A DNA stretch of 64,000 bases from assembly GCA_963709405.1 (NCBI GenBank), contig CAVPXM010000038.1, positions 32,001 through 96,000 of the forward strand. The letters run 5' to 3'. Source of the DNA: an uncultured Nitrososphaerales archaeon. GTDB taxonomy: Archaea; Thermoproteota; Nitrososphaeria; Nitrososphaerales; Nitrososphaeraceae. The notes under the pieces are model-generated. The model saw only the letters and a list, made by a program, of their open reading frames with translations, ran no database searches and was not told the DNA's origin. Shown one piece after another: positions 8,042 through 26,561 of this stretch. How positions within the stretch are numbered: position 1 is the first letter of the stretch; each line of letters opens with the position of its first letter. Position numbers and translations under genes: made by a program.

Positions 8042-8483
8042 TAATATTATGATATACAGATCATTAATTAACTATTTTCACTTATTTGCAATCCCTTTTT
8101 ACGTAATTGCTCGAGCCAGTTGCAAATGGAAAATGGAAAGTAGTAGAATTGGTAACTTTCATGCACCCTGACGTACACAAGAATAAAGTATCGTCTGAAT
8201 GTCTGGATATCAAACCTTAGTTAGTCTATACATCTGGTGTCTCATTTTAGACAATCTTAATCTAATATGCCGCACATCGTATTAGAAGACACTTTTTCCG
8301 GTATAATTAAACTGGACCCGTAGAACATCCCAAAATAGTCTAGTTTGGTGGAATACAGATTCCTACTGCATATAAAGCAACTTAATTTGAAAATGATCGA
8401 ATATGAGTTTTTTGGTTTTATTGGGCAAGCTAAAAGCAGACACATGCAGATAACAATTATTAATTTAATTAGATGTAACACGC

Positions 8484-9569: not shown

Positions 9570-9769
9570 GTCATATAGAATTATTTGATGAAATCAATAG
9601 TCGACATAACTTCCAGATTATACCCCTCCACTTACATGAAGAACTAATATAGTTATTCATACTACTACGGTATGATCCAATAAATTATCATAATTCATAG
9701 AACAAAATGAATAATATTATCTTGTCCAGATTAGTTTGAATTTCAAAAACTGACTATGATTATTGACTT

Positions 9770-10150
9770 GGGGTTAGCATATTATACAAATATGTGTTTT
9801 CTATCTTTAGTTTTTCCAAACTTATAGGTAAATAGCCAGTATTCTTTGCAGACTTAATATTATAATTGATTACATAATTGGGATTAAAGTCTAGTTCCAT
9901 TATAGAACGGCATCTTCTAGCCAATCCCTAATCATATTGGTAGCCTCATCAGTAGAACATTTTTTAACGTTAATAAGGTAAGGGGCCAGAATACGCCATA
10001 CTGCAAATTTTCTGTAATCGCCTATTGGAGTTTGCAGTAGTTTTCAATCCACCAAATTTTAGTTGAATTTGCGGTCTTGACGTGCACACTCCCGCCAACA
10101 GCTAGTCTCCGCAATGTTTTCATTAATTAGCCATCTTCTAAATTCGCGCA
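9770..10150 (-). pseudogene. C-terminal fragment of AEP primase family gene
   Basis: Minus strand reads LLQTPIGDYRKFAVWRILAPYLINVKKCSTDEATNMIRDWL, matching the C-terminus of 14827-15888. Confidence 0.8.
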
Positions 10151-10270
10151 AGAGACATTTTATTGCAGTCTCGACACTGCAGTCTCGACTACCTGACTAC
10201 ACTTTGAATTCGTGGTGCCGGGAACTCTGACAAGACATGAATTGACCGCGGAAATTTTTTTATTTCTTTA

Positions 10271-10564
10271 TTATCCCTGTATCCTTGAAATCGCCTTCTT
10301 CAAATCATCCAAATTCATTGCAGGATGTATTTCTACGTTGGCATCGAATCCCTGAAATAAAGGTTCTGCAATGTTCGGGATCATATCTGGACTTGGCAAA
10401 TCCAAAACAAAGACCATAGTTCTGTTTCCATTCACTTCAGTAAAGTATGCGGCCTCACAGTTGAACTTCTTGGTATAGTCTTCGATAGTCTTCAAGAAAT
10501 TAGGATCTTTAACCATCTTGTTGCCGGCAGTTGTTGGAATCAATGCTCTAATTAATACTCTCAT
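10271..10564 (-). CDS. Conserved small protein (DUF3303/GYD-like fold)
   Basis: Intact 97 aa ORF, 'EAAYFTEVNGNRT...IAEPLF...VEIHPAMNLDDL'. Confidence 0.65.
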   Translation of the reverse strand: MRVLIRALIPTTAGNKMVKDPNFLKTIEDYTKKFNCEAAYFTEVNGNRTMVFVLDLPSPDMIPNIAEPLFQGFDANVEIHPAMNLDDLKKAISRIQG

Positions 10565-10750
10565 GTCAATTCGTCAAAGTAAGCCGGTCGCGCCTTGATA
10601 ATTAATCTTTCTATCTGAACTCTTGGCGCAACTCACTACAGCATTTGAAACAATATATGAAATTTGTATAGGATGATTTGGCTTGATCTTTGACTAATAG
10701 GGTTTAGATAAGATTTTGAAAATCGTTGATTGTATAATAAATTCTATCCC

Positions 10751-10896
10751 GGCCTGTAAATTCTTAAAAATGAAGCACCATCTTCATTCTGCATTGGAGA
10801 GAAGCATAATCGAGGGAGAGAACGATAGAGTACATCAAAGATAGAACGGAAAGTTTCGATGATTATTTTCCTTGTAGAAAAAATAAATGTAAATTG
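10751..10896 (+). mobile_element. IS6-family transposase 3' fragment
   Basis: Encodes 'CKFLKMKHHLHS...EYIKDRTESFDDYFPCRKNKCKL', similar to the IS6 copies at 38.1, 53.7 and 58.6 kb. Confidence 0.8.
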
Positions 10897-10925
10897 CTCC
10901 TACGACAATAATGAAAGACTCCTCT

Positions 10926-11546
10926 TCAAAGTACATATTTTGGTCCACCAAAAATTTTTGATATGGTCAATATTTTAGCCCATTCTTCAAGTGCTTCTAC
11001 AATAGCACGTGCCTGATGAATATTGTTTCCAACAGCTACAACTCCGTGATTCTTAATTATAACTGCCTTTAATTTTTCACCATCCTGTCCAAATGCTTCA
11101 GAAACTACATTTGCTAATTCTGTTGATCCTGATGGCTTATTTGCGATTATAACAGGATTTCCTACTACTATCTTGGCTTCTTCTATTATATGTCGAAATT
11201 GATATTTTCCAGATATGGCAATACCAAGTGTATATGGACTATGCGTGTGTACGATTGCATTTACTTTTCTTGACTTTTTGTAGATAGATAAATGCATATA
11301 CCATTCTATACTCGGTTTCAATCTACCGAGTGTCTTTCCAGTTTCTAAATGTACTTTGATCAAATCCTCCTCTCGCATATTGTAACGCGGGACCCCAGAT
11401 GGAGTTATCCACATCCATTTTGTGTTTTCGATTCTAATACTATGGTTGCCTGATATAGGCGATGTAAAACCCATCTCATACAAACTTTTAACACAATTTA
11501 CAAGGGTCCTTTTATTATTGACATCAGTTTTATTGATAGAAATCAA
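10926..11546 (-). CDS. Class II aldolase/adducin family protein
   Basis: 'SGNHS', 'ITPSG', 'PSIEWYMHLSIY', 'VHTHSPY', 'KNHGVVAVG'. Confidence 0.9.
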   Translation of the reverse strand: MISINKTDVNNKRTLVNCVKSLYEMGFTSPISGNHSIRIENTKWMWITPSGVPRYNMREEDLIKVHLETGKTLGRLKPSIEWYMHLSIYKKSRKVNAIVHTHSPYTLGIAISGKYQFRHIIEEAKIVVGNPVIIANKPSGSTELANVVSEAFGQDGEKLKAVIIKNHGVVAVGNNIHQARAIVEALEEWAKILTISKIFGGPKYVL

Positions 11547-11730
11547 TATGACGAACGAACATAATGGACAAAGATCCTATTAATGATATTGCAGTGTTAG
11601 AACATTACAATAGCAGGATTTCCAACAAGATTATTTGGTCCTTGATAACTCATTAATTTGATATAATGGGTGCACCTGTCATATCTCCACTTCGCTCCCC
11701 TATTCTTACCTCAATTCTCAAAAAGGAATA

Positions 11731-11955
11731 TTGTATAATAAAACCCTGATGAACCTATTCCGAGACGAGGGCATACTCACTAAAGAAATTGAATCATGCA
11801 AAGGCTTTACAGATCGTCTATCTTCGGAAGATATAAAAGCCTTCCTGAACATGCTCAATGGTTGCTACAAATATTCCAAGGCAATTAATGCGAAAGGATG
11901 GCCATTTCCAACTGAACCTGTAATCATGACCATAGTATTTCGCAGTACAAACTAA
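11731..11955 (+). CDS. Hypothetical protein, probably frameshifted at the 3' end
   Basis: 74 aa ORF with protein-like composition; no recognised motif. Confidence 0.4.
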   Translation: MYNKTLMNLFRDEGILTKEIESCKGFTDRLSSEDIKAFLNMLNGCYKYSKAINAKGWPFPTEPVIMTIVFRSTN

Positions 11956-12074
11956 TCGAGTGGTTAGAAACGCGGATTTACAAGACTAAACATTTCTAGG
12001 TAAAACGATACTTCAGTCTACGCAGCTCACTGCCAAAGTACCTATATGGAGTACCGATACTAATAAAATTATAG

Positions 12075-12235
12075 ATTATTGGTGTATCCGTAGATGGTAC
12101 TAACAGACATGATATGAAAATGAGTAAAGCAATGCTTCAGAGTATAGTAGTCTATAGACCTGAACCAACAATCAGATCAAAGCAGCAGATGTGCCTTGAC
12201 AAAGGCTATGACTTTCCAGAGCTATACGAATTACT
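12075..12235 (+). mobile_element. IS5-family transposase fragment
   Basis: Reads VSVDGTNRHDMKM...MCLDKGYDFPE (AN.HD and DKGYD motifs); abuts the IS481 insertion. Confidence 0.7.
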
Positions 12236-12249
12236 AACTCTTAATTAGT

Positions 12250-13282
12250 TGTTGTACTTGCACGGATAGGTTACATTTTTAATTACCTACATGGGTTACA
12301 CTTTTCTGTTTAGTTCTCGTATGTGTACTGGATGTAATTAACCTTTGTAGGAACATCTCCGATGGAGTAAGACCATTTATGCCTCCATGTTCTCTGGTTT
12401 CGTTATATGCTTTAACAAACATGTCGTATCTTTGTTTACCATCATCTATGTTTGGTATATCTTCTAATGCTATGAATTCATTCTTTACAATCTTGTTATA
12501 TGCTTCTACTTTGCCCTGTAACTGCGGATATGATTTTGGTATTTGCTTATCTTTTATCTGATTATGTATAAGGAAATGTCTGAATATTCTGGATGTAAAC
12601 TGTTTACCGTTATCATGCATCATCATCTTAGGCTTACCATTAATCATTATCCAGTCCTCTAATACATTAAGAACATCCACTGACCTCTTTCTTTCGGACC
12701 ACTTGCTAGCCACCTTCCTAGAACAATCATCTAAGCAACTAATGATGTAATTCCTTTGACTGGAATTACTCAGATAGAAAGGGCCAAGGATATCCATCTG
12801 TACCATATCATTTGGATGCTTCATGACAAACCGTTTGTAAGTTCTTGCTTTGGCCTTACACATGAGGATATTAAGACAATGTCTCTTTAGTATCTTGTAT
12901 ATAGTTCGGGTGCTTAATGAGATTCCAATGATTCTTTTTAGTCGAAACTTGATCCTATTACATCCAAATCTCTTAGTTAATCGTAGATCAAGTATAGTCT
13001 CTTCTACTTCTGGTGTTACCTTCCTGTAGTTGATTTTATGAGGCCTTCTGGAGTTATCTGATAGGCCTTCTATCCCTTTCTGCTTGTATCTATTATTCCA
13101 CTTGTAGTAAGTCTTTCTGGATACACCATATCTCTTACAAATATTACATATGGTATCACCAGTCCATTCTTTTTCGTGTATTAGATTAAACCTTATTCTG
13201 ATTTCTATATGGATTCACTTCCCGACAGAAGTGTAACCCATGTCTGTAAGCTATAATGTCACCTATGTCAGTAAGTACAACA
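12250..13282 (-). mobile_element. IS481-family element, copy 1
   Basis: 28-bp imperfect TIR (TGTTGTACTT...ATAGGT.ACATT), TGT...ACA ends, 6-bp TSD ATTAGT at 12244-12249 and 13283-13288. Confidence 0.92.
12279..13214 (-). CDS. IS481 DDE transposase (HTH + rve core); no canonical in-frame start for the N-terminal part
   Basis: 'CKRYGVSRKTYYKW', 'QMDI', 'LDDCSR', 'HDNGKQF', 'GKVEAYN'; frame open from ATC at 13214. Confidence 0.88.
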   Translation of the reverse strand: MHIEIRIRFNLIHEKEWTGDTICNICKRYGVSRKTYYKWNNRYKQKGIEGLSDNSRRPHKINYRKVTPEVEETILDLRLTKRFGCNRIKFRLKRIIGISLSTRTIYKILKRHCLNILMCKAKARTYKRFVMKHPNDMVQMDILGPFYLSNSSQRNYIISCLDDCSRKVASKWSERKRSVDVLNVLEDWIMINGKPKMMMHDNGKQFTSRIFRHFLIHNQIKDKQIPKSYPQLQGKVEAYNKIVKNEFIALEDIPNIDDGKQRYDMFVKAYNETREHGGINGLTPSEMFLQRLITSSTHTRTKQKSVTHVGN

Positions 13283-13429
13283 ATTAGTCTAGCTAGAATG
13301 CACAACAAAAATGAACTGGAATTGACTGTTAATTTCATAGCTTCGATGAGGATATCTTTGTTGAAATTGATCAGATTAATACAACTAGAAACACCTGATG
13401 AGAATCATCTGTATTAAATTAATTATTCA

Positions 13430-14335
13430 TTTATCTTCAATAGTCTTGAACTTGCTATCTGAAACTTGTCAGAGTCTATTTCTATGCCTATGAATCTTCT
13501 TTTAAGTTTGAGTGCTGGCAGCACCTGTCGTACCAGAACCCATCATAGGAAATTCTAAAATGGGTTCGGCGTTTATTAATTCTTGTCTCTTTTGTTCCTT
13601 TTGTAATTGTCTGTAGACCTTATCTATCTTCACTTTTCCTTTCCTTAATTGATCTTTTATATCCTCAGGTGCATTTTTGATAATCTCTCTGCCTTTAAAG
13701 TATGTCATTGGAGAAACTTGCGCTCTCCTAGCAGAGATATCAATTACTCTGCCTCTTGAATGCAGATTCTTGTCTGTATTATCCCGTTGCTCAATCGACG
13801 TTGATGTTAAAGTCGTGTCTATTCTTTCTAATTGGTTTAATGGGGTAGTATAATTTTGTACCACCCTATTATCATTATTATGAGGAGTGCTCTCGTTATC
13901 CGTTTTCATCGCCCATCTTTTTTCAGCCCCTACCTTCCCAGCACAGAACATTCGAGTTGCTGCTTTTCCAATTTCATTTTCTATAGTCTCCAACTTGTAC
14001 TGTAATTCTATCCTCTGAAACAGAGTCAGGTGTCTGCGATTCATGTTTACTTCTATTCTAAATTTTTGTTCCAGTAATCGATAGTCAAAAAATTTTACAA
14101 ATAACTTTGGATCCTTTCCTAGTTCTTGACACGCCTTGTATCTCTGATAACCATCAAGAATCGTGCCATGTTGATTTAATATTATAGCGTAGTATAACTC
14201 ATTTTCCTTAATTGATTGTTTAAGAGATTCAAAATCTTCTGCTGAGATACATGGAACTAGGTTGTCATATTCATTATTAATGATGACAGTGCCTTCAAAT
14301 CTTTCATCCTGTGGTGTTATTATCGACGTTGTCAT
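13430..14335 (-). pseudogene. ParB/Srx N-terminal domain protein fused to a deleted N6/N4 DNA methyltransferase
   Basis: 'FESLKQSIKENEL...ILDGYQRYKACQELG', 'NMNRRHLT'; ends 'PMMGSGTTGAA' and, after a frameshift, 'LKRRFIGIEID'. Confidence 0.8.
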
Positions 14336-14826
14336 TACATTTTTTTGAAAAATAGGAATAAAATAAAAAAGAAAACAAATATAATCACGCGGCCTAGGTT
14401 ACCATTATATCAAATCAGCAATTACTATATCTACCAGTCACAATGGCGTCATTTTACCTGACTGTATGAATAATATTTGTGATTGTTCTATCCGGTACTT
14501 GAGCGGATTAGAAATTCTTAATATTTCTCTATAATTCTATGGTATACCTCTTGCCACCAAGTAGATGTTATAACAAATAGGATGACTACCATAATTCATA
14601 AGTTCCAATCATTTCAACTAGTATTCGAATTTCATCTATTTGATCGTTATATGAGGTGTCAATATATTAGGAGTAAAAAAGTATAATTAAAAAATAGTAT
14701 AAATCCTAATTTGCTACGCGATAAGAGCCTGATTTCCTGATAGTCGTTCTTGTCTTGGTGTAACATTAATGTAAGAGTAGTCCAGTTTCTATTTTCTCTC
14801 ATCGTGAGTTTAATTTTTCAATGTCA

Positions 14827-15888
14827 CTAATCTAGCGAGACACGTCTAATTAGGATATCATAGAGTTCTTTATCCACATCCTTCAATTTCTCCAAACTAA
14901 TTGGATAGTAGCCTTTGCTTGCACCCATGAGGCCTTCTCTTATCTTACTCTTGGGATTAAAGTTCAATCTTTCTAGTTCGTTGCATTTGTCCAACCAATC
15001 CTTGATAAATCCAAAGGACTCTTCTGATGACATGCCTCTTATTTTCAGCAAATATGGTGTAAGAATTCTCCAAATGCAATATTTCCTATGATCACATAGG
15101 CCAGTTTGAAGCAATGTTTCTATCCACGGAATACTGTTGTTATGATCAAAAATACCAACAACATCCTTGTGTTTCGCTTCTCTTTCTAGCCTTGTTACGT
15201 TTTCCCTGATCTTCTTAACTTCTCTGTCTACCAACCATATATTGAATTCATACAACAAGACATTGAACTTTGGTCTTTTACCATCCCATCTCTGGATTAT
15301 TTTTACCTCTGTTGAATAGTCAGCAATATTGTTATTTCTTACGGCACATTTAGTATTAAATGAGCCTGGAATTCGTATCATGCAAGATTTGAATGATGGA
15401 TTGTGAGATGGATCTGATTTGCAGTTAGTTAAATGTAATTCTGCAAATTTTAAAAATGCTTTAGACGGCTGATCAAACTTGCTGAATAATACCTCTTGTT
15501 CTAGTGGAAAGGCTTCAAGGGGCAAATATATATGATATCCATTACCAGACCATATAACTGTAGGATTCACACCAAATATCCGGTCAATTTTCTTTAGGAC
15601 TTTTTTCACGAATGTGGATAACTCCTCAATGCAATTGAAGGCCGACAGATCCAAATCTATGAATATGAAATTAGGCGCCTGTCTGTTGATATCCCTAAAT
15701 CCTGTATAATCCGGATAGGCATTTATTCTACAGTCCAAAAAATTAGCTTGTTTGAACATTTGAATTGCATCTTCTTTATTAAAAACTAGAACTTGTCTTC
15801 CTTCAGTTGCATTAGTCGATAAGGTTCTAGGCCATACCGGTTCTTGAAAATGGCTTATAATGAAATCTAAATCGTACGTATGTTCCAA
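14827..15888 (-). CDS. Archaeo-eukaryotic primase (AEP) superfamily protein with PriX-like C-terminal domain
   Basis: 'FIDLD' motif I, 'SGNGYHIY' motif II, 'D...MIRIPGSFN' motif III; C-terminal 'WIETLLQT..DHRKYCIWRILTPYL'. Confidence 0.85.
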   Translation of the reverse strand: MEHTYDLDFIISHFQEPVWPRTLSTNATEGRQVLVFNKEDAIQMFKQANFLDCRINAYPDYTGFRDINRQAPNFIFIDLDLSAFNCIEELSTFVKKVLKKIDRIFGVNPTVIWSGNGYHIYLPLEAFPLEQEVLFSKFDQPSKAFLKFAELHLTNCKSDPSHNPSFKSCMIRIPGSFNTKCAVRNNNIADYSTEVKIIQRWDGKRPKFNVLLYEFNIWLVDREVKKIRENVTRLEREAKHKDVVGIFDHNNSIPWIETLLQTGLCDHRKYCIWRILTPYLLKIRGMSSEESFGFIKDWLDKCNELERLNFNPKSKIREGLMGASKGYYPISLEKLKDVDKELYDILIRRVSLD

Positions 15889-15947
15889 GTTTCACACTCA
15901 TGTAATTAATTTGCACATATAATGACTTAAGATTTTTGGACTGGGCC

Positions 15948-15983
15948 GGATTATATCCCTTGTGGTTAAGGGGTTCAACTACT
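15948..15983. repeat. 36-bp dispersed non-coding repeat, copy 1
   Basis: ggattatatcccttgtggttaaggggttcaactact; 34/36 match to 19591-19626. Confidence 0.85.
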
Positions 15984-16197
15984 TTAGCATATAGGCATTA
16001 TTTAAACGGCAGAATAATGACTGAATAATGATCCACCGACATAGTAGAAGTTTGTGTAGTCATCCAAACTGTTGTGTACACACGTATCAGGTGGCTAGTT
16101 GGTCTGGGTTCGGTGGGATGCAGTACACTACTGCATGTAATACACTATTCTAAAACTACACCATCAGTAATGTCTCCAAAATAACCTTGTAAGAAAG

Positions 16198-17278
16198 CTA
16201 TTTGGAAAACATCATACTACTCTCTCTATCTCTATAATCTAATAATGTGAAGCTTATTTCCTTTCTGAAGATCTCAATTTGTTCTTCAAAATCGCTTATC
16301 GGCCAGAAATGTAAACGCATTACTCCAGCTTCATAAAGAACATTTATCTTTTGTATACACTCCTCAACAGACCCAAATAAAAGTAGATTTTCTAACTGTT
16401 CTGCAGGTCTGCCTAATGCTGGAGATAGCCTATCTTTTACCATCCTGTGAACTTTATCTTTATCGCTATTGATGTATCCAAACATTGACATAAGACAATT
16501 TTCAAATGATTCGCTATCTTTACCTAATCTTTTTCTGTATGACAAAAGCATATTCCATTTTTCTCTGAACTTGTCTGGTGTGATATTATATGCAGATGCC
16601 ATCCAACCATCACCATATTTTGCAGTTCTTTTTAGGCCTGCTTCTGATGATCCCCATGTGCCTACGAATATAGGAGGGTGAGGCTTTTGAAATGGCATTG
16701 GTGCAATAGATATTTTCTCTAATTGATAATATTTGCCGCTATAGTCTACGTATTGTGTAGTAGTAGCCTTTATGTCATTACCGTCATCATCATCATGCTC
16801 TCTCCTACTACTATTGTTCCAAAGTATATGCAAAATCTGCAATGCTTCATTAAATCTACTCCACCTATGCTCAAAAGGAATTCCACATGCATCATAATCT
16901 CCCTTATGTGAGCCAGGCCCAACTCCTGTCTGCAAATAGCCTTCCAGAAGATAGTATATCTATAGCTGATAAAGCCTTGGCACATATAACAGGGCTTCTT
17001 ACAACTATGTTTAGTATGGACGTGCCAAGTTTTATCCTATTGGTTACTGCTCGAGCTACTGACAATGTACTTAGCGCGTCCAACCAACTAGTTCTAGAGA
17101 CAATGTGATCGTTTACACTCAATGAATCATAGCCAAGAGACTCTGCCTTTCTTGCAATTGAAAGTATTTGTTCTCTTGTATGAAGCTTTTCATTTTCTTC
17201 ATTATTTTTATTATTACTATTACTGCTGCTATTAAATTCGATAACTGGTAAATGAACTCCAAATGCAAACTGTTTCAT
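16198..17278 (-). pseudogene. LLM-class flavin/F420-dependent oxidoreductase, frameshifted near 16920
   Basis: 'ARKAESLGYDSLSVNDH', 'IKLGTSIL', 'DILSSGRL' then 'GVGPG', 'PFQKPHPPIFVG', 'YGDGWM'. Confidence 0.88.
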
Positions 17279-17849
17279 TCATTACTCCAGGAACAAATAT
17301 ACAAATATATCATATAAACTAGTACATCGTATAGAGAGGCAGGGTTTGTCTCGAGGCTTTGTAGTTCGTATTCTGTGGGCTTGTATATGTATACATGTAG
17401 TGTATACGATATTGTTAGTGCGATGCATATAATTTTATTATTAGAGATAAGATTAGAATAATTTGATATGGTTCCATGAAATTATTGTTAAAGGAGAATT
17501 ATTGCCATTAGTATATAATCACTCAGGTATCTTCTAATTGTAGTCATTTTGATTCTCGTCTTAATCTATATTTATTTGATTATTGCTTGATTTTGTTGCT
17601 GCTGCCTAGAATGGATAATGATAATAATAATAATAATGGTATGAAAATAGGATTAAGACTACCACAAACAGATGAACTTCGTGCTACAAAACAAAATATC
17701 GAAGCAAAGCACTCTGAAGTGCAGATATTTTTATTGTATAATCTTATTGATACCAATTAGTAAATTGTGATTTGAGTATGGGAGCTATGGCAACTATATC
17801 AGTAAGTGAACTTATATAATTCTGAAGACCTTGCAGGGACTGAAATTTA

Positions 17850-18311
17850 TTATTTTTTCTTTTGTATTCTTTTTTGAATTTGACCTAACTGCTTTTGCAA
17901 TAGTTTGATTTTAGATTGCAGGTTTTTTATGACCCCTACCTGTTCCTTTGCGGATTTATTGTGTATTCGTAATGGTGGAGCATACGTAATACCTTGTCGA
18001 TTTGGCCAGTCTGCTTCTCTAGTTGTTTAGCTACATTAGCTGAAATTCTTTTTTTCTTGTTGACTACTTACAGAGGGTTTTATTTTAGATACCTTGGGTC
18101 TTTTTGGAGTTTTGATGGCCTTGGTCAATATCTCCTCTTGTTGTTCCTGTTCTACTATTTTCTTGGGGAGGACTTCGAACTCTTGTCCTTCGGCTACTTC
18201 CACATTTTCTTTTTCTTCATCCTGTTTCTCAATTTGTCCTTCTTCTTGTACTTCTATTGTTGCTTCTACATTGCCTCGAACTATCACTCTATTATCTTCT
18301 GCTTTCGACAT
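17850..18311 (-). pseudogene. Acidic/coiled-coil hypothetical protein, frameshifted
   Basis: ORF 18036-18311 continues in other frames as ISANVAKQLEKQTGQIDKV...LQKQLGQIQKRIQKKK*. Confidence 0.55.
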
Positions 18312-18673
18312 AATGCTTAATCGTATTCGTTATAAATATCGATTTTGTATAACACCTGTTTGTCGACTAGTATGATATAGGGCCTATAGCGCAATTAGAC
18401 AATGAATATTGCCGGCATTTCATGCGTAATTTGGAATTGTGTGTGTATATTTACAATCCACGTTCCATGTAGTACAATTGCCTGGAAATATCGAGTCTTG
18501 TTTCAAAGTCCTTTGAGGGTAATTCTGTACTATCCACTTTGTTTGAGCTTCTTTTAATGAGGTATTTAGAAGCAATATTTCTACATGCAGTATATCTGCC
18601 ATTTTGTGTTATGATAAATCCAGCATAGAATATTTAATTAAAAGCTGCTGTATACTACGATGTTAATCTCTCA

Positions 18674-19168
18674 ATGGCAGCGCAACAACATTCGAAAACA
18701 GGCAAACATCCAAACGATTCCAGAGCTGAGATGACAATTATGATGCTGCCTTCAGATGCTAATCCAAAAGGCAATGTGTTTGGAGGTGTTATATTAAAAC
18801 ATGTAGATCTTATTGCGGGTTTATGCGCCCAAAGACATGCCGGTCGTGCCAATATCGTCACAGCAAGTATCGATAGAATGACTTTTTTAAAGCCTGTATT
18901 CATTGGTAATGCACTAATTCTTTCTGCAAGAGTAAATTATGTAAAAAGATCTTCTATGGAAGTTGAAGTTACTGTGGAAGCTGAAGATCTAGATGACAGT
19001 ATGAGAATTCGCACAGGAACAGCATTTGTTACCATGGTCGCTCTTGATAAATATGGAAAGCCTACAAAAGTTCCAGCACTGATATTGGAAAGAGATGATG
19101 ATAAAATACGATTTCAACAAGGTGAAGCAAGAATGATTTCCCGTCTAAAGGAAGCAGGCAGAATGTAA
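18674..19168 (+). CDS. Acyl-CoA thioesterase (hotdog fold, YciA-like)
   Basis: 'PSDANPKGNVFGGVILKHVD', 'VTASID', 'FVTMVALD..GKP'. Confidence 0.92.
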   Translation: MAAQQHSKTGKHPNDSRAEMTIMMLPSDANPKGNVFGGVILKHVDLIAGLCAQRHAGRANIVTASIDRMTFLKPVFIGNALILSARVNYVKRSSMEVEVTVEAEDLDDSMRIRTGTAFVTMVALDKYGKPTKVPALILERDDDKIRFQQGEARMISRLKEAGRM

Positions 19169-19590
19169 TTCAGATAGTTTTAGGCTGTTCTTTTCAATTC
19201 TATTTACAGTCTGGTAATAATAATATGCGAACGGAAAAGATTCTAACTACTGCCATGATTACTATTATGATTATTTCGCGCGTCAAATATTTCTTCAACA
19301 AACCTGCGATTTCATAATCAGATTAAAGCCTGCCACAGCACAAAACTAGAATCATCATAATATATGTGAGACTACTTCATATCGGCCTACTTTCGTTAAG
19401 CGGATAAGAATTCGAGCACTGCGATAAAATATACTAAGGATTCATATTTGCTTGAACACCTCCCTCATGAGAGAGGGTTCAATTCTCTATTTTACTGAAG
19501 CAGAATATCATTTAGATATGATGTGCAATTATACTGCTACGAAATAGTACTTGCAAATGTAGGCGACAATTTAGCTTACATAAGTGAGCG

Positions 19591-19626
19591 GGATTATATC
19601 CCTTGTGGTAAAAGGGTTCAACTACT
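19591..19626. repeat. 36-bp dispersed non-coding repeat, copy 2
   Basis: ggattatatcccttgtggtaaaagggttcaactact. Confidence 0.85.
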
Positions 19627-19968
19627 CTGTACACAGATGCCTTTTTGAAATAAGCGCGCAAAGACTGAAAATGTGGATAATTGATAACAAGAATGATAGT
19701 AGTAGTATATTAGCTTGGTCTAGTTAGGGTGAGTAAGTTATTGTTATTGTTATATCCTTGCTCCTTTTGTCACTCCTCTCTCTTAATGCTTTACTACAGT
19801 TACTTTAAACTCGAGATTGCGGCTAAATCATTATTCATGAATTCTCTTACAAGGTTAGAACGATCTTATTATGCTGTGGGTGGTAGTTCAACAAAATCTG
19901 GAATATTTGATTATCTATATGAACACAGACTTAGATACCTCATAATCGATCAAATTGAGAAGATTAGT

Positions 19969-21003
19969 TGTTGTACTTGCACAGATAGGTTACATTATTA
20001 GGTACCTACATGGGTTACACTTTGCTGCTTGTTCTTGTATGTATGGTGGATGTAATTAATCTTTGTAGAAACATCTCTGATGGAGTAAGACCATTTATTC
20101 CTCCATGTTCTCTAGTTTCATTATACGCTTTTACAAACATATCATACCTTTGTTTACCATCATCTGTGTTTGGTATATCCTCAACTGCTAGAAATTCATT
20201 CTTCACTATCTTGTTATATGCTTCCACTTTACCCTGAAGCTGCGGATAGCGATTTGGTATTTGTTTATCCTTTATCTGATTGTGTACGAGGAAATGTCTG
20301 AATATGTTAGATGTAAACTGCTTTCCATTGTCATGCATTACTCTATCAGGTTTGCCATTGATCACTATCCAATCCTCTAATACGTCCAGAACATCCACTG
20401 ACCTCTTTCTTTCAGACCACTTGCTAGCTACCTTCCTAGAGCAGTCGTCTAAGCAACTAATGATGTAATTCCTTTGATTGGAATTGCTCAGATAGAAAGG
20501 GCCAAGGATATCCATCTGTACCATATCATTTGGATGCTTCATAGCAAACCGTTTGTAGCTTCGTATTTTAGCTTTACATCTAAGGATGTTAAGACAATGT
20601 CTCTTTAATATCTTGTATATAGTTCGAGTGCTTAATGAGATTCCAACAACCTTTCTCAATCTAAACTTGATCCTATTACATCCAAATCTCTTGCTTAATC
20701 GTAGATCAAGTATTGTTTCCTCTACTTCTGCTGTTACTTTTTTGTACTTGATATTATGAGGTCTTCTTGAGGTATCTGATAGACCTTCCATCCCTTTCTG
20801 TTTGTATCTCTTATTCCACTTATAGTACGTCTTTCTGGATACACCATATTTTTTACAAATAATGCTTATGGTATCACCAGTCCATTCTTTTTCATGTATT
20901 AGACTAAACCTTGTTCTGATTTCTATATGGATTCACTTCCTGACAGCAGAAGTGTAACCCATGTCGGTAAGCTATAATGTCACCTATGTTAGAAAGTACA
21001 ACA
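19969..21003 (-). mobile_element. IS481-family element, copy 2
   Basis: Same TIRs; TSD ATTAGT at 19963-19968 and 21004-21009; diverged from copy 1 by many substitutions. Confidence 0.92.
20015..20932 (-). CDS. IS481 DDE transposase, copy 2
   Basis: Same motifs as copy 1; frame open from ATC at 20932; altered C-terminus (SSKV). Confidence 0.88.
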   Translation of the reverse strand: MHIEIRTRFSLIHEKEWTGDTISIICKKYGVSRKTYYKWNKRYKQKGMEGLSDTSRRPHNIKYKKVTAEVEETILDLRLSKRFGCNRIKFRLRKVVGISLSTRTIYKILKRHCLNILRCKAKIRSYKRFAMKHPNDMVQMDILGPFYLSNSNQRNYIISCLDDCSRKVASKWSERKRSVDVLDVLEDWIVINGKPDRVMHDNGKQFTSNIFRHFLVHNQIKDKQIPNRYPQLQGKVEAYNKIVKNEFLAVEDIPNTDDGKQRYDMFVKAYNETREHGGINGLTPSEMFLQRLITSTIHTRTSSKV

Positions 21004-21145
21004 ATTAGTAAATGAGGCCAAACAAGTCCATTGAATTTAATGGAATCCCGTATCTTGTCAGAGCTAAAATACAGACAGCAAAGAATGACTCAACTAAAGA
21101 CATGGTTACTCTTCCTGTGAAGAAACAACGGTATCCTTGAATTTC

Positions 21146-22675
21146 TCAAAACACCTTTATTCCACCGAAGACTTCTTTCGTCTTTTCTGCTAATTGCTCT
21201 GTGGTTACACCTGCGTGTGTTTCCTTGGCGATGATAAAACCATCATCGTTTCTCAGCTCATTAGGTTTGCCGTCTTGATTCTTGAAAGTAGGCATAAATA
21301 CATCGCTAAACCATTTCGCGACATATGGTCTCAGACTGATTGCTGCCCTTTCCATAAGCTCAAGAGTCTCTTTTAAGTCTTCAAGAATCATGATAGGATA
21401 AGACTGACCGGTTTCTTTATCTAGTATCATAGGTCTAGTATCCATGTTTATCTTCGTAATGATTGTTAGATAGTTCATTAATCTCCCCTGAACGGTCATA
21501 CTCCAGACGTGGTTTTCAGAAACTGGAATAGACTCAGATATGGCTTCGTTTATGGGATTTGGGATCTTGATACCCGAGTCCTTTGGCTTTAGCTTTCTGC
21601 TATGTTGCTTGAGCTTCGCAATTATCACCTTAGTTATATGCTTGCATTTTTCCTTGTCCTCTCTGCTTACCACTAACGTATCGTATTCCTCCGGGAGGTA
21701 GCCGTACTTTAATCCAATTAATTTATTCGCCGCCTTTATTTTTTCGCTGCTTGTATTCGGTGTTATATTGATGAACCGTCTGTTCTTCTCGTCAAAACGC
21801 AATCCTCTAGTATCATCTATGACTCGTGTAGTGAATAACACTGGCATACCTCTCAATCTATTAATCCTCGTTCGCATTTGACCGGAAGCAGACTTCTCAA
21901 CAAAAGTATACTTTTGATCTCGCGGAGTGTCTCGTGATATCAGACTCATCAGTACGCTAAGTAGCGAGTCCTGAGGAGTATCGAGACATAAAATAATCTG
22001 GTTATCTAGATTTATTAACTTCTCTGCACGGTTTTTAATGTCTTTTATCTGTGCCTCAATTGCTTTGATTTCTTCCTTATCTTCCCTAGATAGTTTTTCT
22101 TTATTCTGAATTTCCTCAATTTGTAACTCTAGTTCACCAATTATCGGATCTATAGCACGAGTCTCCTCTTCGTCGGTTTTTTCGTTATATTCTGATATCA
22201 CCATAATACCAGACCTGTGGACTAGAGCCTTGTCAGACATACCAGCCAGTTCTATGATGTACTTACTGGGAAAGTATCCGGCTACAGTAACCAGTAGGTA
22301 TGTTTTACCTGCGCCCGAATCCCTCGAATTAATAGTGTGGGGGATCGGGCATTTCGTAAATGCGCTGCAATAACCATAAAATAGTTGCCTGATAGATACC
22401 TCGTCATATTCCGCTTCCTTCTTCATCGTAGAAATTACAAGGGCAATATCCTTTGTCGTTAGTCTTTCATTTGCAAGCTGCTCATCATAATTTTGTTCGT
22501 GCAATTGACTTGGTGTTCCTTTATCTGCTGACGATTGCGTTTCTTCTGGTGTCGAACAATTCTTTTCCTCGTGGGATTGATAGCTGTCTGAGCTGAGACC
22601 ACGTAGTAACTCGTCTGGATCTTTCTGCTCCTCTCCCAGTTCACGGTCTTCACTTTCGCCATTATTATCTATCAT
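21146..22675 (-). CDS. MCM-like AAA+ ATPase / putative replicative helicase with coiled-coil insertion, possibly C-terminally truncated
   Basis: Walker A 'DSGAGKT', 'MSDKALV', Walker B-like 'ILCLD', sensor-1 'VLFTT', Arg finger 'EKNRRF'. Confidence 0.65.
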   Translation of the reverse strand: MIDNNGESEDRELGEEQKDPDELLRGLSSDSYQSHEEKNCSTPEETQSSADKGTPSQLHEQNYDEQLANERLTTKDIALVISTMKKEAEYDEVSIRQLFYGYCSAFTKCPIPHTINSRDSGAGKTYLLVTVAGYFPSKYIIELAGMSDKALVHRSGIMVISEYNEKTDEEETRAIDPIIGELELQIEEIQNKEKLSREDKEEIKAIEAQIKDIKNRAEKLINLDNQIILCLDTPQDSLLSVLMSLISRDTPRDQKYTFVEKSASGQMRTRINRLRGMPVLFTTRVIDDTRGLRFDEKNRRFINITPNTSSEKIKAANKLIGLKYGYLPEEYDTLVVSREDKEKCKHITKVIIAKLKQHSRKLKPKDSGIKIPNPINEAISESIPVSENHVWSMTVQGRLMNYLTIITKINMDTRPMILDKETGQSYPIMILEDLKETLELMERAAISLRPYVAKWFSDVFMPTFKNQDGKPNELRNDDGFIIAKETHAGVTTEQLAEKTKEVFGGIKVF

Positions 22676-22678
22676 GAC

Positions 22679-23113
22679 TCAAATAAACTCCCACCTTAAG
22701 GGCTCATTTCGGATATATTGATAAAAAGCCATTTTGCGCCGGGATCTAAAAATTCTAAACACGGCCTCAGTTACGATTCTATTGACGGATTCTATCGGTA
22801 GCGTGGCAAGCTCAGCCTTCAATCTCGCAGAGAAATCTTCCAGATGTAGATGAAATATTGGCTTGTATTTGGCATTTTTCCCTTCGAAGTTACCAATACT
22901 TCTTAGACCAGCATATTTGTCAGCCTGATAAAAATACCTATTAAGCTGCCTATAGCTATTTTTTGTCGCCTTTACTTCAACGGTCTTCTGGCACTCGCAC
23001 ATCTGCAAATATAGTTGATCTTCGATGAAGCTAGAGAGCCAGTGAACCTCTTTCGCATTAAATTTCCAATCAGCCAAAAAGGCCGGTGGGACAAATACCT
23101 TCTCTTCATTCAT
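22679..23113 (-). CDS. Hypothetical protein in element operon
   Basis: 144 aa ORF; ATGA overlap with upstream gene, 3 bp to downstream gene. Confidence 0.7.
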   Translation of the reverse strand: MNEEKVFVPPAFLADWKFNAKEVHWLSSFIEDQLYLQMCECQKTVEVKATKNSYRQLNRYFYQADKYAGLRSIGNFEGKNAKYKPIFHLHLEDFSARLKAELATLPIESVNRIVTEAVFRIFRSRRKMAFYQYIRNEPLRWEFI

Positions 23114-24054
23114 TTCCTTAGAGGCACGAACCGAACCCTTTCGTTTACAAGTCGCTGTATATCTCGGGAGCTGAACTCATTAAGTGAAGCCTTATGTATT
23201 TGTTTATCAAAATATTGATCCACTGAGCCAAGCACCAGCCTTCTTAATCTCTCGGGGTCTTTCTGCAAAGCATCAGTTTCGATTTGATATAGTCCGCCAT
23301 TTTCTTTAGCAAATGCATTCGCATTTGGATCACGTCTTAATTTCTCTAAAACTTGCGGATCAGGATTCTTCAGGTGGTCTAGACCAAAGTCCACAATCTG
23401 CGACTTTCTCAGTGCAGTTCTCTCAAAATGAATGCCATAACCTCGAAGTTTCTGTCCGAGATTGTAGGACATTCTGAGACCTGTCGGATCATAATCACCA
23501 AAATAAAGAACGTGGACGATCTTACCTTGTCGTTTCTTAGAAAGTAATCGCTGAATATTGTTGTATTCGTACGTGATACTCGACCACCCGCGATTAGGAA
23601 CAATACGGACTTGTCTATCTTTCAAGATTTCCTGGAATGTTCCAACAACTGCACCTTTTTCTATAAATACTTCGACATAATGACGCTGATCATACCATCT
23701 TGGTATAGTATGATGGTATGATCTGTGTAAGTGTCGCAGTTTACCCAGGAAATAGTTTATAAATTCAATTGGTTCCCAATATCTATCGTCAATTTCAATT
23801 ATGTGCCTGCTGTTATCGACAAAGGAGTCCATCGGAATTAGTTTCTTCTTTCTGGCGGTAGAAAGTGCCTTCACGAGACCCTTATATGCAGGTGTGGTAA
23901 GTGGTATGACCTGATCGGACCCGGCCCTATAAAATATCCCTCTTATCGTAGGCTTGAATCCGGTGTATTCGTTGTCTAGCAGATGCCTAACGTATGGTAT
24001 CACAAAGTCAACCCAGTCGATCACTTTTGTTGCAGCATTGCTGGCGGTGGTCAT
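23110..24054 (-). CDS. Spo11/Topo VI-A-like (Mini-A-like) WHD + Toprim protein
   Basis: 'PTIRGIFYR' (candidate catalytic Tyr), 'VEVFIEK' (Toprim Glu), 'RGWSS', 'YFGDYDPTG' (DxD), 'ETDAL'. Confidence 0.8.
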   Translation of the reverse strand: MTTASNAATKVIDWVDFVIPYVRHLLDNEYTGFKPTIRGIFYRAGSDQVIPLTTPAYKGLVKALSTARKKKLIPMDSFVDNSRHIIEIDDRYWEPIEFINYFLGKLRHLHRSYHHTIPRWYDQRHYVEVFIEKGAVVGTFQEILKDRQVRIVPNRGWSSITYEYNNIQRLLSKKRQGKIVHVLYFGDYDPTGLRMSYNLGQKLRGYGIHFERTALRKSQIVDFGLDHLKNPDPQVLEKLRRDPNANAFAKENGGLYQIETDALQKDPERLRRLVLGSVDQYFDKQIHKASLNEFSSRDIQRLVNERVRFVPLRK

Positions 24055-24422
24055 GACCCAAGCGCCCCCTGTGCTAGAATTTTATTACCATTAATTTCTG
24101 AAGTCTCGTGATTTTTTGACTTTTGCAGTCTGCCTGTGAAATATTCGCTAACAATCGACTGCCTTATTTCGTTTCTAGTACTTGATAATACTTTGCCTGC
24201 GACTTTTTCAAATACGATGCCCTCAAGAAGCAAACCATTATCCTTGCAAATATAGAATTCCTTTACCTCGTTAGAGATGTCACCTACAAAACTCTCTACG
24301 GCAAAGCCTTTCCCGAACTTATGAATAGGAACTACAACGCTAAGGTTATTAGTTGGACTTTCTGTACTCTTCATCGTTCGTGCACTCCTTCTACGATTGA
24401 ACTGCTCCAACTGAACCTGCAA
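24051..24422 (-). CDS. Hypothetical protein in element operon
   Basis: 123 aa ORF, stop overlaps next ATG (ATGA); start uncertain. Confidence 0.6.
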   Translation of the reverse strand: MQVQLEQFNRRRSARTMKSTESPTNNLSVVVPIHKFGKGFAVESFVGDISNEVKEFYICKDNGLLLEGIVFEKVAGKVLSSTRNEIRQSIVSEYFTGRLQKSKNHETSEINGNKILAQGALGS

Positions 24423-24477
24423 TCAGGGCGGCACCTTTGAATGCAAGTATCGGCAACTTTTACTCTTACAGTCAATT

Positions 24478-24666
24478 TTACGTGACCGATTCTTCCTGTG
24501 GCTGAAGTTTGTACTTCTTCAAAACAATTCCGTTTTCCATAGGTTGTTGAACGAAGAAAGTTAATTCATCAATGCCAAGGCGTCTCACGTGACTTGGATC
24601 CAGTGTCAGAACGACTGAAGTCCCCACGTAGTGGGCCTTTTTGATAGGATACGATTTTTCAGACAT
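24478..24666 (-). CDS. AbrB/SpoVT-like swapped-hairpin DNA-binding protein
   Basis: MSEKSYPIKKAHYVGTSVVLTLDPSHVRRLGID...ENGIVLKK; start at ATG 24666. Confidence 0.7.
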   Translation of the reverse strand: MSEKSYPIKKAHYVGTSVVLTLDPSHVRRLGIDELTFFVQQPMENGIVLKKYKLQPQEESVT

Positions 24667-24669
24667 GCT

Positions 24670-24722
24670 ATGTTGTATCAAACACAACATGTTATATTTA
24701 TATGTTGTATCATATACAACAT
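24670..24722. promoter_or_regulatory. Two 21-bp palindromic putative operators flanking a shared TATA-like core
   Basis: ATGTTGTatcaaacACAACAT (24670-24690) and ATGTTGTATcatATACAACAT (24702-24722) separated by gttatatttat. Confidence 0.8.
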
Positions 24723-24730
24723 CTGCTGCA

Positions 24731-25384
24731 ATGTTAGAAACTAACCCACTGAGAATACCCGTCGTCGTAGGTTTTTTTACAGATCTACAGAGAAAAATAG
24801 TTAAGCACGTGGGAACTAACAACAACGCAAGTTACAGGACATTAATTCAAGATATCGGGAAAGATCGAATAACAATTATGCAGTGCTTAAATTCTTTGAT
24901 GGAGTGGCGGTATATTGACAAAAAAAAGGTCAAACCAGAATTTGAAAAAAGCAAGCTGATCTTTTCGTTAACATCTAAGGGAATCGCAGCAGCATGCCTT
25001 AGAAAAGTTATAACTCTAGATGAGATAGCCAAAAATATTAATGGAAAGGACAAGATTACCAAATATGTAAAATTTGTCTATCAAACGTTTAATTCTTCAA
25101 ACCGCAATCTGATGATAGAGCCGCTATTTCGAAAACTCGATAAAACATATGCAGGTTATGAGCCTGGATCTGATGAAGAAAAGAATATAGTAAGAGATTG
25201 TTTTCTCAGAGGCATCGTGGATCTATGCTTTGATGACAATTTTAACGTAAGCAGATTGTTTAATAATAAAGGTATCAAATTGCTAGAGGAATTATATTCG
25301 TCAGAGGAGCTTAAAGAAATGAAGAAATTCTTGGTAAAAGGAAGGGACAACATCAGTTCAACTATTGAAAAGTTTCCAGATTAG
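24731..25384 (+). CDS. Winged-helix transcriptional regulator (putative repressor)
   Basis: 'ASYRTLIQDIGKDRITIMQCLNSLMEWRYID...IFSLTSKG' wHTH; divergent from AbrB-like gene. Confidence 0.75.
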   Translation: MLETNPLRIPVVVGFFTDLQRKIVKHVGTNNNASYRTLIQDIGKDRITIMQCLNSLMEWRYIDKKKVKPEFEKSKLIFSLTSKGIAAACLRKVITLDEIAKNINGKDKITKYVKFVYQTFNSSNRNLMIEPLFRKLDKTYAGYEPGSDEEKNIVRDCFLRGIVDLCFDDNFNVSRLFNNKGIKLLEELYSSEELKEMKKFLVKGRDNISSTIEKFPD

Positions 25385-26561
25385 TAGTGGCCTGTGAAAT
25401 CTGTACCAATTTTGAAGGATTCTTTAATAATTGCTGCATATCCGATATTGCGTTCTTAAGCAGCTGAATGTCTGTATCGTATTTTTCTCTCAATGTATGT
25501 ATCTCCTGGTCTTTCTCCTGTAATTTTGCCTCAATGTTCTTACCTGTCGCTTCTAAGGTTGTATAGTCCAAGAACGTTAAATACTTCATGCATTTGGTTG
25601 TATAGATTACCCTTTTTTCTGATTCCTTTATCGTATAGTAAGGCGATTTAGAATGTCCTAAAAACCATTCAGAGTAATCTTGGTTAACCTGGTTACTTAT
25701 TACACTTTTACAAAACCTTCTCAAAGAATGTAACGTAATTTTCCTTCTTTGCATTCCTTCTTTTCTTTCAGCCATTCCTACGATTGTAAGTAACTTTTCA
25801 AACTCTACCATTACTTTGATGTACAAGTAATTAGGATTGGGCTCATTTCTTATTGTATAGGTACTAAATACCAAGTCGTCTGGCATTGGTATTTTAGTTC
25901 GGCTATCACCCTTATCCCGATACTTCCAATTAATCCATTCCTTTAGATATTTACTTGCTTCATCCGATATGTAAATCTCCCGGGAGATTTTAGTTTTGAC
26001 GTACTCTTTACGAATATGGATCTTTGCAGGACTAATTGAAAAGTCGATATCTCTCAGTCTGATTGCAAGAGCTTCTACCGCTCTTAGTCCTCCACTTGCT
26101 AGAACTAAAAGATATCCCTTTAACCTTCTATTATTACATGATAGCAATAATTTTCTGATATCTGACACATCTAACGGCTCCTCATCTTCATGATAAATCT
26201 TCGGCATCTTGATTTTTCTTTTAAATTTTGAAGGTATAACATCTATATCATAATAAGCAAAATACGATTTGAGTCCAGTTAAGTATAGCCTAACACTACG
26301 TATCGAAAGCTTTCTATTGATCAAAAATGAAATAAAGTTATCTAATATCTCATAGACGCTAATCTCTGATTTCTGAAGTGGTTCCAAGATTGTTTCAGTA
26401 GTATATTCTGGATACTTAACAGTTAGGAAATTATGAAAATGTGTGATGCTGTTAAGATAAGAACTTTTTGAATTTTTGCTGTTACGTGCTATACTTCGTA
26501 AAAAGGAATTCACTTTGGCAGTTTGATATATCTGCTGACGTACGGAGCTATCTTTTGCCAA
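25362..26561 (-). CDS. Tyrosine recombinase / site-specific integrase
   Basis: 'GGLRAVEAL' (R), 'VKTK' (K), 'HSLRRF' (HxxR), 'LGH', 'PYY' (Y); C-terminal coiled coil. Confidence 0.92.
   Translation of the reverse strand: MAKDSSVRQQIYQTAKVNSFLRSIARNSKNSKSSYLNSITHFHNFLTVKYPEYTTETILEPLQKSEISVYEILDNFISFLINRKLSIRSVRLYLTGLKSYFAYYDIDVIPSKFKRKIKMPKIYHEDEEPLDVSDIRKLLLSCNNRRLKGYLLVLASGGLRAVEALAIRLRDIDFSISPAKIHIRKEYVKTKISREIYISDEASKYLKEWINWKYRDKGDSRTKIPMPDDLVFSTYTIRNEPNPNYLYIKVMVEFEKLLTIVGMAERKEGMQRRKITLHSLRRFCKSVISNQVNQDYSEWFLGHSKSPYYTIKESEKRVIYTTKCMKYLTFLDYTTLEATGKNIEAKLQEKDQEIHTLREKYDTDIQLLKNAISDMQQLLKNPSKLVQISQATTNLETFQ

Follow-up and report, generated by a model that had tools for sequence, protein, structure and literature searches.

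The 64-bp spacer between two divergently transcribed genes for predicted DNA-binding proteins of an uncultured Nitrososphaerales archaeon very probably contains a pair of conserved cis-regulatory operators that belong to a bidirectional promoter. We analyzed a stretch of 64,000 nucleotides (the window; contig CAVPXM010000038.1, positions 32,001 to 96,000), in which this spacer (24667-24730) separates a leftward gene for a 62-amino-acid (aa) AbrB/MazE-like protein from a rightward gene for a 217-aa protein of the winged helix-turn-helix (wHTH) type. The spacer is nearly filled by two perfect copies of the palindrome ATGTTGT-N7-ACAACAT, each 21 bp long and spaced 32 bp from start to start, with an AT-rich core between them. 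The interpretation that we favor, with slightly better than even confidence, is that the core is a TATA element shared by the two promoters of a cryptic integrated element, that the palindromes are two operators flanking it, and that the wHTH protein is the likelier of the two regulators to read them.

Twin palindromes around an AT-rich core

The features of the region, in window coordinates, are as follows.

24478-24666, minus strand: gene for an AbrB/MazE-like (swapped-hairpin-like) small predicted DNA-binding protein of 62 aa, the first gene of a leftward string.
24670-24690: candidate operator 1, on the side of the AbrB-like gene; ATGTTGTATCAAACACAACAT; a perfect 7-N7-7 palindrome with 3 nt to the leftward start codon.
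24692-24703: AT-rich core, candidate shared TATA box or boxes for both directions; TTATATTTATAT; nearly symmetric, with its center at 24697.5.
24702-24722: candidate operator 2, on the side of the wHTH gene; ATGTTGTATCATATACAACAT; a perfect 7-N7-7 palindrome with 8 nt to the rightward ATG.
24731-25384, plus strand: gene for a winged-helix protein of 217 aa, with an N-terminal wHTH domain (approximately residues 18-90) and an all-helical C-terminal domain.

The start codon of the leftward open reading frame (ORF) is the CAT at 24664-24666 and that of the rightward ORF is the ATG at 24731-24733, so that the two codons are 65 bp apart and lie 31.5 and 33.5 bp from the center of the core. The half-sites are the same in both palindromes and the central 7 bp differ (ATCAAAC in operator 1, ATCATAT in operator 2); of the two, operator 2 alone can also be read as a perfect 9-3-9 palindrome, and its first two bases are shared with the end of the core. 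No Shine-Dalgarno motif is visible in the spacer. A first-pass annotation, made from the sequence alone, had described the two palindromes, their 32-bp spacing, the 64-bp spacer and the central TATA-like core, and every one of these details was borne out by the coordinates. So was the geometry that it had drawn, with the AT-rich core midway and each palindrome lying between the core and one start as well as upstream of the other promoter.

Single palindromes of this kind are not significant, since the count of perfect 7-N7-7 palindromes in the window is 6 and 1000 local shuffles average 6.1, and the heptamer alone is not enriched (15 found, 12.6 expected). In contrast, none of the 1000 shuffled sequences contained two same-arm palindromes within 100 bp of each other. 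A scan for further copies of the motif, which the first-pass annotation had proposed and which we ran over the 64 kb, returned only the two spacer sites at up to 2 mismatches. Allowing 3 mismatches gave 8 matches where 5.75 were expected, and the 6 extra matches are thus at chance level; up to this threshold, no operator copy was found at the integrase promoter in the window.

Several other signals were considered and set aside. A scan of 24300-25100 against Rfam for RNA elements produced 4 sub-threshold matches (17-21 bits compared with gathering scores of 40-89; E 0.3-0.66), and a sigma-70 promoter scan produced 3 matches, a chance level for a model that is in any case inapplicable to archaea. 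The upstream regions of 41 window ORFs gave no clean positional signal for a TATA-to-ATG rule, as these ORFs have unverified starts. Further perfect palindromes, with arms of 9 nt, are present at 2075-2104 (extending to arms of at least 12 nt), 23691-23720, 25866-25894 and 25973-25990, the last two inside the integrase gene.

We scanned GTDB genomes with the AbrB-like profile and obtained three loci, all from Nitrososphaeraceae.

L001 (AbrB-like protein 82% identical): two perfect copies at 5353-5373 and 5385-5405, 32 bp apart, with an 11-bp AT-rich core.
L003 (73% identical): two copies with mismatches (2 in one, 1 in the other), spaced by 41 bp, on either side of a 20-bp AT-rich stretch.
L002 (64% identical): two separate TATA-like boxes in a 98-bp spacer, with ACAAC(AT) ahead of each; the integrase is intact (427 aa).

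The divergent wHTH and AbrB-like genes are present at all three loci, each time with an integrase gene, or what is left of one, convergent to the wHTH gene; the genes downstream of the AbrB-like gene vary between the loci. In L001 the operators end 6 nt from the wHTH start codon and 3 nt from the AbrB-like start codon, much as in the window, and the integrase is split into two ORFs (3462-4712). AT-rich cores lie between the palindromes in both L001 and L003; codons 3-4 of L003 contain a third ACAACAT, and that locus appears to have two TATA-like boxes. Between the window and L001, 28 of 28 half-site positions are identical, compared with 11 of 25 other positions of the 53-bp block (Fisher p 1.9e-6) and with 58-60% identity at third codon positions of the flanking genes. 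Because the half-sites and the spacer length were kept and the spacer sequence was not, the comparison yields a clear phylogenetic footprint. Paired palindromes at homologous loci, which the first-pass annotation had listed as a check, were found at two of the three (perfect in L001, imperfect in L003) and were lacking in L002. We conclude that, on the sequences compared, the nearer relatives keep the layout and the most distant one has it rearranged, and since related elements keep it, the spacer is very likely to be a genuine control region of a familiar type.

Further operator copies beyond chance were found neither in the window nor in L001 or L002, and L003 has 6 motif matches at up to 3 mismatches where 1.06 are expected, 3 of them intergenic. 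The half-site may survive in L002 in a new arrangement; that locus also has a different 24-bp palindrome (5960-5985; 10-nt arms and a 4-nt center) over the AbrB-like start codon. Locus L003 is decayed, with a C-terminal integrase remnant (2994-3245) and an AbrB-like gene cut to 49 aa (3982-4131). The related elements are thus decaying, and L003 combines degenerate genes with degenerate operators.

Traces of the palindrome could also be followed in the translated N-termini of metagenomic homologues. A QH or RH dipeptide (from ...CAACAT) precedes the conserved core in 13 of the small protein's 32 close homologues, 5 of these 13 having the full MLY-x-IQH type of pattern, and such dipeptides number 0 in the other 1986 residues. 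In a wider set they occur in 24 of 115 proteins, compared with 14 in 7525 other residues, and the distant members mostly lack them. On the other side of the spacer, a complete palindrome located 6 nt ahead of the start is translated in the N-terminal extension of a close wHTH homologue (P0003). These upstream in-frame extensions are not coding, because the one in L001 runs into a stop codon and those of the wHTH gene are in different frames in the window and in L001. Alternative ATGs lie inside the window palindromes (24689 and 24690), and automatic calls start the regulator genes there, giving proteins of 231 instead of 217 aa and of 70 instead of 62 aa; P0001, P0003, P0009 and P0010 are among those so mis-called. 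This flags a systematic error of start-codon annotation across both families.

The two regulators and a model of the control region

AlphaFold2 modeled the 62-aa protein fairly confidently from 33 sequences (predicted local distance difference test, pLDDT, 84.4) in the order strand-strand-helix-strand-strand (strands at residues 8-14, 17-22, 36-43 and 46-53; helix at 24-30), which is that of the ∼50-residue swapped-hairpin domain of AbrB, MazE and SpoVT. Nine of its 10 top Foldseek matches in the PDB were MazE, AbrB, C68 of pSSVx (3o27) or C56 of pSSVi (7xi6), all of them weak (E 1.2-2.1; template modeling (TM) score 0.33-0.53), and its first match in the ESM Atlas was a cluster in which 39% of members have PF04014 (score 0.90; 183 shared features). 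Searches by sequence gave no Pfam family at E ≤ 0.1, no PHROG or NCBIfam match, 0 matches of the family profile to PDB sequences at E ≤ 10, and a precomputed Pfam domain in 0 of the 120 listed relatives. The family itself is tightly conserved over 281 proteins at E ≤ 1e-3, and its N-terminal, predicted DNA-facing half is nearly invariant. We regard 'AbrB/MazE-like' as a reasonable label for the predicted fold and do not assign the protein to that family by sequence.

The model of the 217-aa protein (pLDDT 89.7) shows a three-helix bundle (residues 18-29, 35-42 and 46-58) and a beta-hairpin wing (62-66 and 76-80) followed by seven helices. Its best Foldseek matches were PadR, ArsR-like and MarR proteins (probability 0.99-1.00; E at least 3.9e-3; TM score ∼0.3 over the whole chain). 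No match reached threshold in Pfam, PHROGs or NCBIfam, the best Pfam match (HVO_A0114, E 0.074) falling short of the cut-off, and the family profile found 0 PDB sequences at E ≤ 10. An exhaustive profile search defined a family of 108 cluster representatives; among 38 members, matches at E ≤ 0.01 were to HTH_27 (9), TrmB (8), MarR_2 (2) and PadR (2). Neither regulator has a Pfam match to a cI/Cro-type helix-turn-helix (HTH_3-like), their predicted folds being wHTH and beta-beta-alpha-beta-beta. The names AbrB-like and wHTH, given to the two proteins in the first-pass annotation, therefore agree with the predicted folds, while neither window protein reaches a Pfam threshold.

The wHTH protein is predicted to form a homodimer through its C-terminal helices. 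Prediction of a two-copy complex gave a score of 0.76, compared with 0.00 for the best of 3 controls, with at least 95% of contacts common to 3 runs and a partner pLDDT of at least 85. The mark applied was reached by 20 of 30 solved homodimers and by 1 of 23 single chains, a calibration that is rough here because our own alignment was used. The predicted interface (residues 159-217) is symmetric and leaves the wHTH heads free.

In archaeal promoters, the center of the TATA box lies ∼26-27 bp upstream of the start site, with the transcription factor B recognition element (BRE) just upstream of the TATA box. From this geometry and the core center at 24697.5, we infer start sites near 24671 (leftward) and 24724 (rightward), which would lie in the outer half-sites and would give nearly leaderless transcripts with leaders of ∼5-7 nt. 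The single, nearly symmetric core at 24692-24703 would most likely serve both directions. Each operator would then span the TATA-to-start region of the nearer promoter, a classical position for an archaeal repressor, and would also lie just upstream of the BRE and TATA box of the other promoter. Because the operator centers are 32 bp apart, or three helical turns, they would present the same face of the DNA (the 41 bp in L003 would be about four turns). More broadly, the spacer is probably the control region of a regulatory module in a family of integrated elements of Nitrososphaeraceae, with the order integrase, convergent wHTH gene, divergent AbrB-like gene, and variable cargo or replication genes.

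As to what reads these sites, each operator can be viewed as two inverted 7-bp half-sites separated by a fixed 7-bp spacer of free sequence, which would suit a two-fold symmetric dimer, most likely a wHTH dimer held together by its C-terminal helices. We give the wHTH protein an even chance of being the reader. It is favored because strict two-fold symmetry, separated half-sites and a sequence-free spacer suit two reading heads, and because it is the protein predicted to form a homodimer through its C-terminal helices. With respect to the sign of regulation, we infer that two wHTH dimers would bracket the TATA core and repress both promoters, so that the wHTH gene would be autoregulated, the string of AbrB-like and topoisomerase-like genes silenced, and the element kept quiet. 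The AbrB-like protein could regulate this region as well, in the manner of Cro or CopG, or could be an antagonist.

Several points weigh against this interpretation. The half-site centers are ∼13-14 bp apart, compared with the 10-12 bp that are usual for wHTH dimers. A conserved operator would also be in keeping with the near-invariant DNA-facing half of the AbrB-like family, and neither window protein reaches the threshold of a curated family or has a PDB sequence match at E 10. The intergenic region of L002, the most distant locus, contains no 7-N7-7 copy at up to 3 mismatches, and thus the layout is not universal in the family. In addition, conservation at the DNA level was assessed over three genome loci, and the metagenomic part derives from translated N-termini only. 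Finally, there is a precedent for the other reader in the AbrB-like protein C68 of pSSVx, which according to a review binds two sites in its divergent intergenic region (PMC5569661).

Alternative interpretations and known systems

The most serious alternative is that the AbrB-like protein reads the palindromes and autoregulates the leftward operon together with the divergent gene, like C68 or CopG-type copy-control proteins, which we consider fairly unlikely. C68 is likewise a stand-alone AbrB-like protein and its two sites lie between its own promoter and the divergent one, as those passages describe (PMC5569661); the AbrB-proximal operator is the one seen conserved in the 13 of 32 homologues; the N-terminal half of the family is the part that is nearly invariant; and the fold matches include DNA-bound MazE, AbrB and VapB. 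However, separated 7-bp half-sites with a sequence-free spacer would suit two heads better than the composite surface of a swapped hairpin, the visibility of the AbrB-proximal site is partly a reading-frame artefact, and the C68 motif is reported there as not palindromic (PMC5569661). A weaker point is that homologues with RH in place of QH (P0014 and P0016) have no matching change in DNA-facing residues. Co-variation between operator and protein could be followed over 4 loci, which are too few to name the reader. The first-pass annotation had instead proposed a cI/Cro-like switch between dormancy and induction. In its strict form, with both proteins acting on the same two operators with opposite preference, the wHTH protein specifying a dormant state and the AbrB-like protein and replication genes an active one, we find such a bistable switch unlikely. 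The topology does resemble that of lambda OR, in that the regulators are divergent (in the window and in all three related loci), the small one comes first in the 'active' operon, and near-identical operators are repeated (two perfect in the window and L001, two imperfect in L003, none in L002); moreover, the differing central 7 bp and the 9-3-9 symmetry of operator 2 alone could grade affinities. Yet this difference between the proximal and distal operators is not kept in L001, the identical half-sites offer one specificity rather than two, and by symmetry each operator touches both promoters. The unrelated folds of the two regulators make shared operators less likely than for cI and Cro. As there is no operator copy at the integrase promoter, which also speaks against such a switch, 'dormancy versus induction' would likewise go beyond the data.

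A variant that keeps the shared core has the module act as a switch of pre-initiation-complex orientation. Only one complex of TATA-binding protein (TBP) and transcription factor B (TFB) could occupy a single symmetric core at a time, so the two promoters would exclude each other, and the operator occupied, whether by a wHTH dimer or by the AbrB-like protein, would set the direction in which the complex faces by blocking the start on one side and leaving free, or helping, the BRE side of the other. We hold this to be quite unlikely; if true, a single TATA box would suffice for a minimal two-state toggle, and to our knowledge such a logic has not been described for archaea. Further from promoter control, the palindromes might be iteron-like sites of a replication origin, with the wHTH protein as the Rep protein, or accessory recombination sites. 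Inverted repeats on either side of an AT-rich stretch do look like an unwinding element flanked by origin recognition boxes, the genes downstream appear related to replication, and the relevant passages of Krupovic et al. raise a wHTH protein as a possible replication initiator of a small thaumarchaeal integrated element (PMC6563490). We nevertheless judge this very improbable: the AT-rich stretch is only 11 bp, the sites are ∼1.8 kb from the integrase-side end of the element, and they keep register with the start codons on both sides (distances of 3 and 8 nt in the window and of 3 and 6 nt in L001), as promoter control predicts, although origin and promoter functions are not mutually exclusive. 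It is extremely improbable that the palindromes lack function, as a chance or recently duplicated repeat, or form an RNA hairpin. Single palindromes are as common as chance and weak Rfam matches overlap the region, but the same-arm pair was absent from all shuffles, the half-sites were kept in L001 while the spacers diverged, unlike in a neutral duplicate, and all four Rfam matches are far under their gathering scores. Were the start sites as predicted, neither hairpin would be fully transcribed.

Comparison with known systems places the favored interpretation, a shared TATA core flanked by two operators, among familiar arrangements. In lambda OR, divergent regulators are likewise controlled through repeated, near-identical palindromic operators, with the small regulator first in the 'active' operon. 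The likeness is in topology only, since lambda has three operators rather than two, back-to-back sigma-70 promoters rather than one shared TBP/TFB TATA box, and two HTH_3 proteins rather than a wHTH and an AbrB-like protein. The pSSVx pair of C68 and ORF60 is closer in that an archaeal mobile element encodes a stand-alone AbrB-like protein of ∼60-70 aa divergently from a second small DNA-binding regulator, and that the DNA between the two genes has two binding sites, of which one is at a BRE, according to the passages on C68 (PMC5569661). Unlike in the window, where the sites are identical and symmetric about one TATA core, the C68 motif is described there as non-palindromic and the partner is a CopG (ribbon-helix-helix) homologue rather than a 217-aa wHTH protein. 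The pSSVx hosts are thermoacidophilic Crenarchaeota, and no sequence similarity is detectable (PDB, E 10).

Haloarchaeal provirus wHTH repressors encoded beside an integrase, namely SNJ2 Orf4 and the phiH1 repressor, recognize interrupted palindromes adjoining a TATA box, and for SNJ2 the length of the spacer matters and its sequence does not, as stated in the sections on these operators (PMC10123103). The same sections say that phiH1 uses two interrupted palindromes upstream of its own start (PMC10123103). Orf4 as described there differs in repressing the integrase promoter (PMC10123103), whereas the window has no operator there and its integrase converges on the wHTH gene. The induction module of SNJ2 given in that source (Orc1/Cdc6 and Orf7) was not seen among the window genes examined, and the operator sequences are unrelated. 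A shared TATA box with divergent start sites 52 bp apart is presented in the relevant part of a preprint on T. kodakarensis (10.1101/2020.01.31.928960). The window start codons, 65 bp apart, would fit 52 bp plus leaders of ∼5-7 nt, the starts here being predicted; that part of the preprint describes no operator pairs bracketing the shared TATA box (10.1101/2020.01.31.928960). L002 and L003 differ from such single-TATA systems in apparently having two TATA-like boxes.

Integrated elements of Thaumarchaeota are similar in combining, in a Nitrososphaeraceae genome, a tyrosine integrase with a wHTH protein and hypothetical or replication-type genes, and wHTH proteins and transcription regulators are said to be widespread among them in the passages that we used of Krupovic et al. 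(PMC6563490). Those passages mention neither an operator or promoter nor an AbrB-like protein: the words 'AbrB' and 'SpoVT' do not occur, and the sole occurrence of 'palindrom' is in the title of a reference on CRISPR (PMC6563490). Literature searches, mostly outside subscription journals and without the supplements of Krupovic et al., found no description of a system such as the one here; for the heptamer they returned primer lists only, for thaumarchaeal start sites and promoters nothing usable, and for the regulation of mobile elements in Nitrososphaeraceae nothing. A mobile-element pair of regulators with palindromic operators at a divergent promoter is thus well known, and what is new is the two uncharacterized protein families (281 AbrB-like proteins and the 108 wHTH cluster representatives), the operator motif, the strictly symmetric layout of twin operators around a single TATA core, and the host group.

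The ammonia oxidizers of the Nitrososphaeraceae are abundant soil nitrifiers, and we know of no genetic system for them. With its two candidate regulators, the compact, conserved control region of ∼100 bp provides an operator-regulator pair that is open to direct testing. Shuttle vectors could be derived from small integrated elements, as suggested in a passage of Krupovic et al. (PMC6563490), and the region is a candidate for use in them as a regulated bidirectional promoter.

The host element and neighboring genes

The genes around the regulator pair are as follows.

25362-26561, minus strand: tyrosine recombinase (integrase), intact; Pfam Phage_integrase E 1.5e-12, PHROG integrase E 1.7e-21.
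21146-24422, minus strand: four co-oriented, packed ORFs of 123, 314, 144 and 509 aa, downstream of the AbrB-like gene.
23110-24054, minus strand: the 314-aa ORF of this string, topoisomerase (Toprim)-like; PHROG 6247 'DNA topoisomerase' E 5.3e-39, with a GDYDPTG motif.
20015-20791: transposase of the rve family, containing an HTH_32 domain, immediately to the left of the presumed operon.

The locus looks like a cryptic integrated element of the kind described in the passages drawn from Krupovic et al. 2019 (PMC6563490). The guanine-plus-cytosine content of the window is low (∼0.32-0.42), and relatives of its genes are found in Nitrososphaeraceae genomes assembled from metagenomes. Beyond the integrase lie a phosphoesterase and a methyladenine glycosylase gene, host-like in appearance. 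Comparison of the integrase end with 8000-21400 gave no convincing att direct repeats (the best was 11 nt), and there is no tRNA gene in the window.

The integrase gene converges on the wHTH gene with a 23-nt overlap (25362-25384). The corresponding 3′ overlap is 20 nt in L001 (4693-4712) and 4 nt in L003 (3242-3245), and in L002 the two genes are separated by 47 nt. Transcripts that start at the wHTH promoter and read through would be antisense to the integrase gene, possibly adding a second layer of control. On the other side, the four ORFs downstream of the AbrB-like gene are presumed to form an operon driven by the leftward promoter; the 314-aa ORF overlaps both of its neighbors by 4 nt, and a 3-nt gap precedes the 509-aa ORF. 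Inspection by eye suggested Toprim-like ORFs in L003 (5077-6972) and L001 (10429-11592) and a GHKL-ATPase-like ORF in L003 (4139-5080), and the related elements may share small genes like those of topoisomerase VI.

Repeated sequences were also noted to the left of the presumed operon. Upstream of an ORF at 12279-12863, a peptide that by eye resembles part of the rve transposase hints at a second insertion-sequence copy. A 42-nt direct repeat, 90% identical, occurs at 15942-15983 and 19585-19626, 3.6 kb apart, and could represent the ends of an insertion element or another repeat family.

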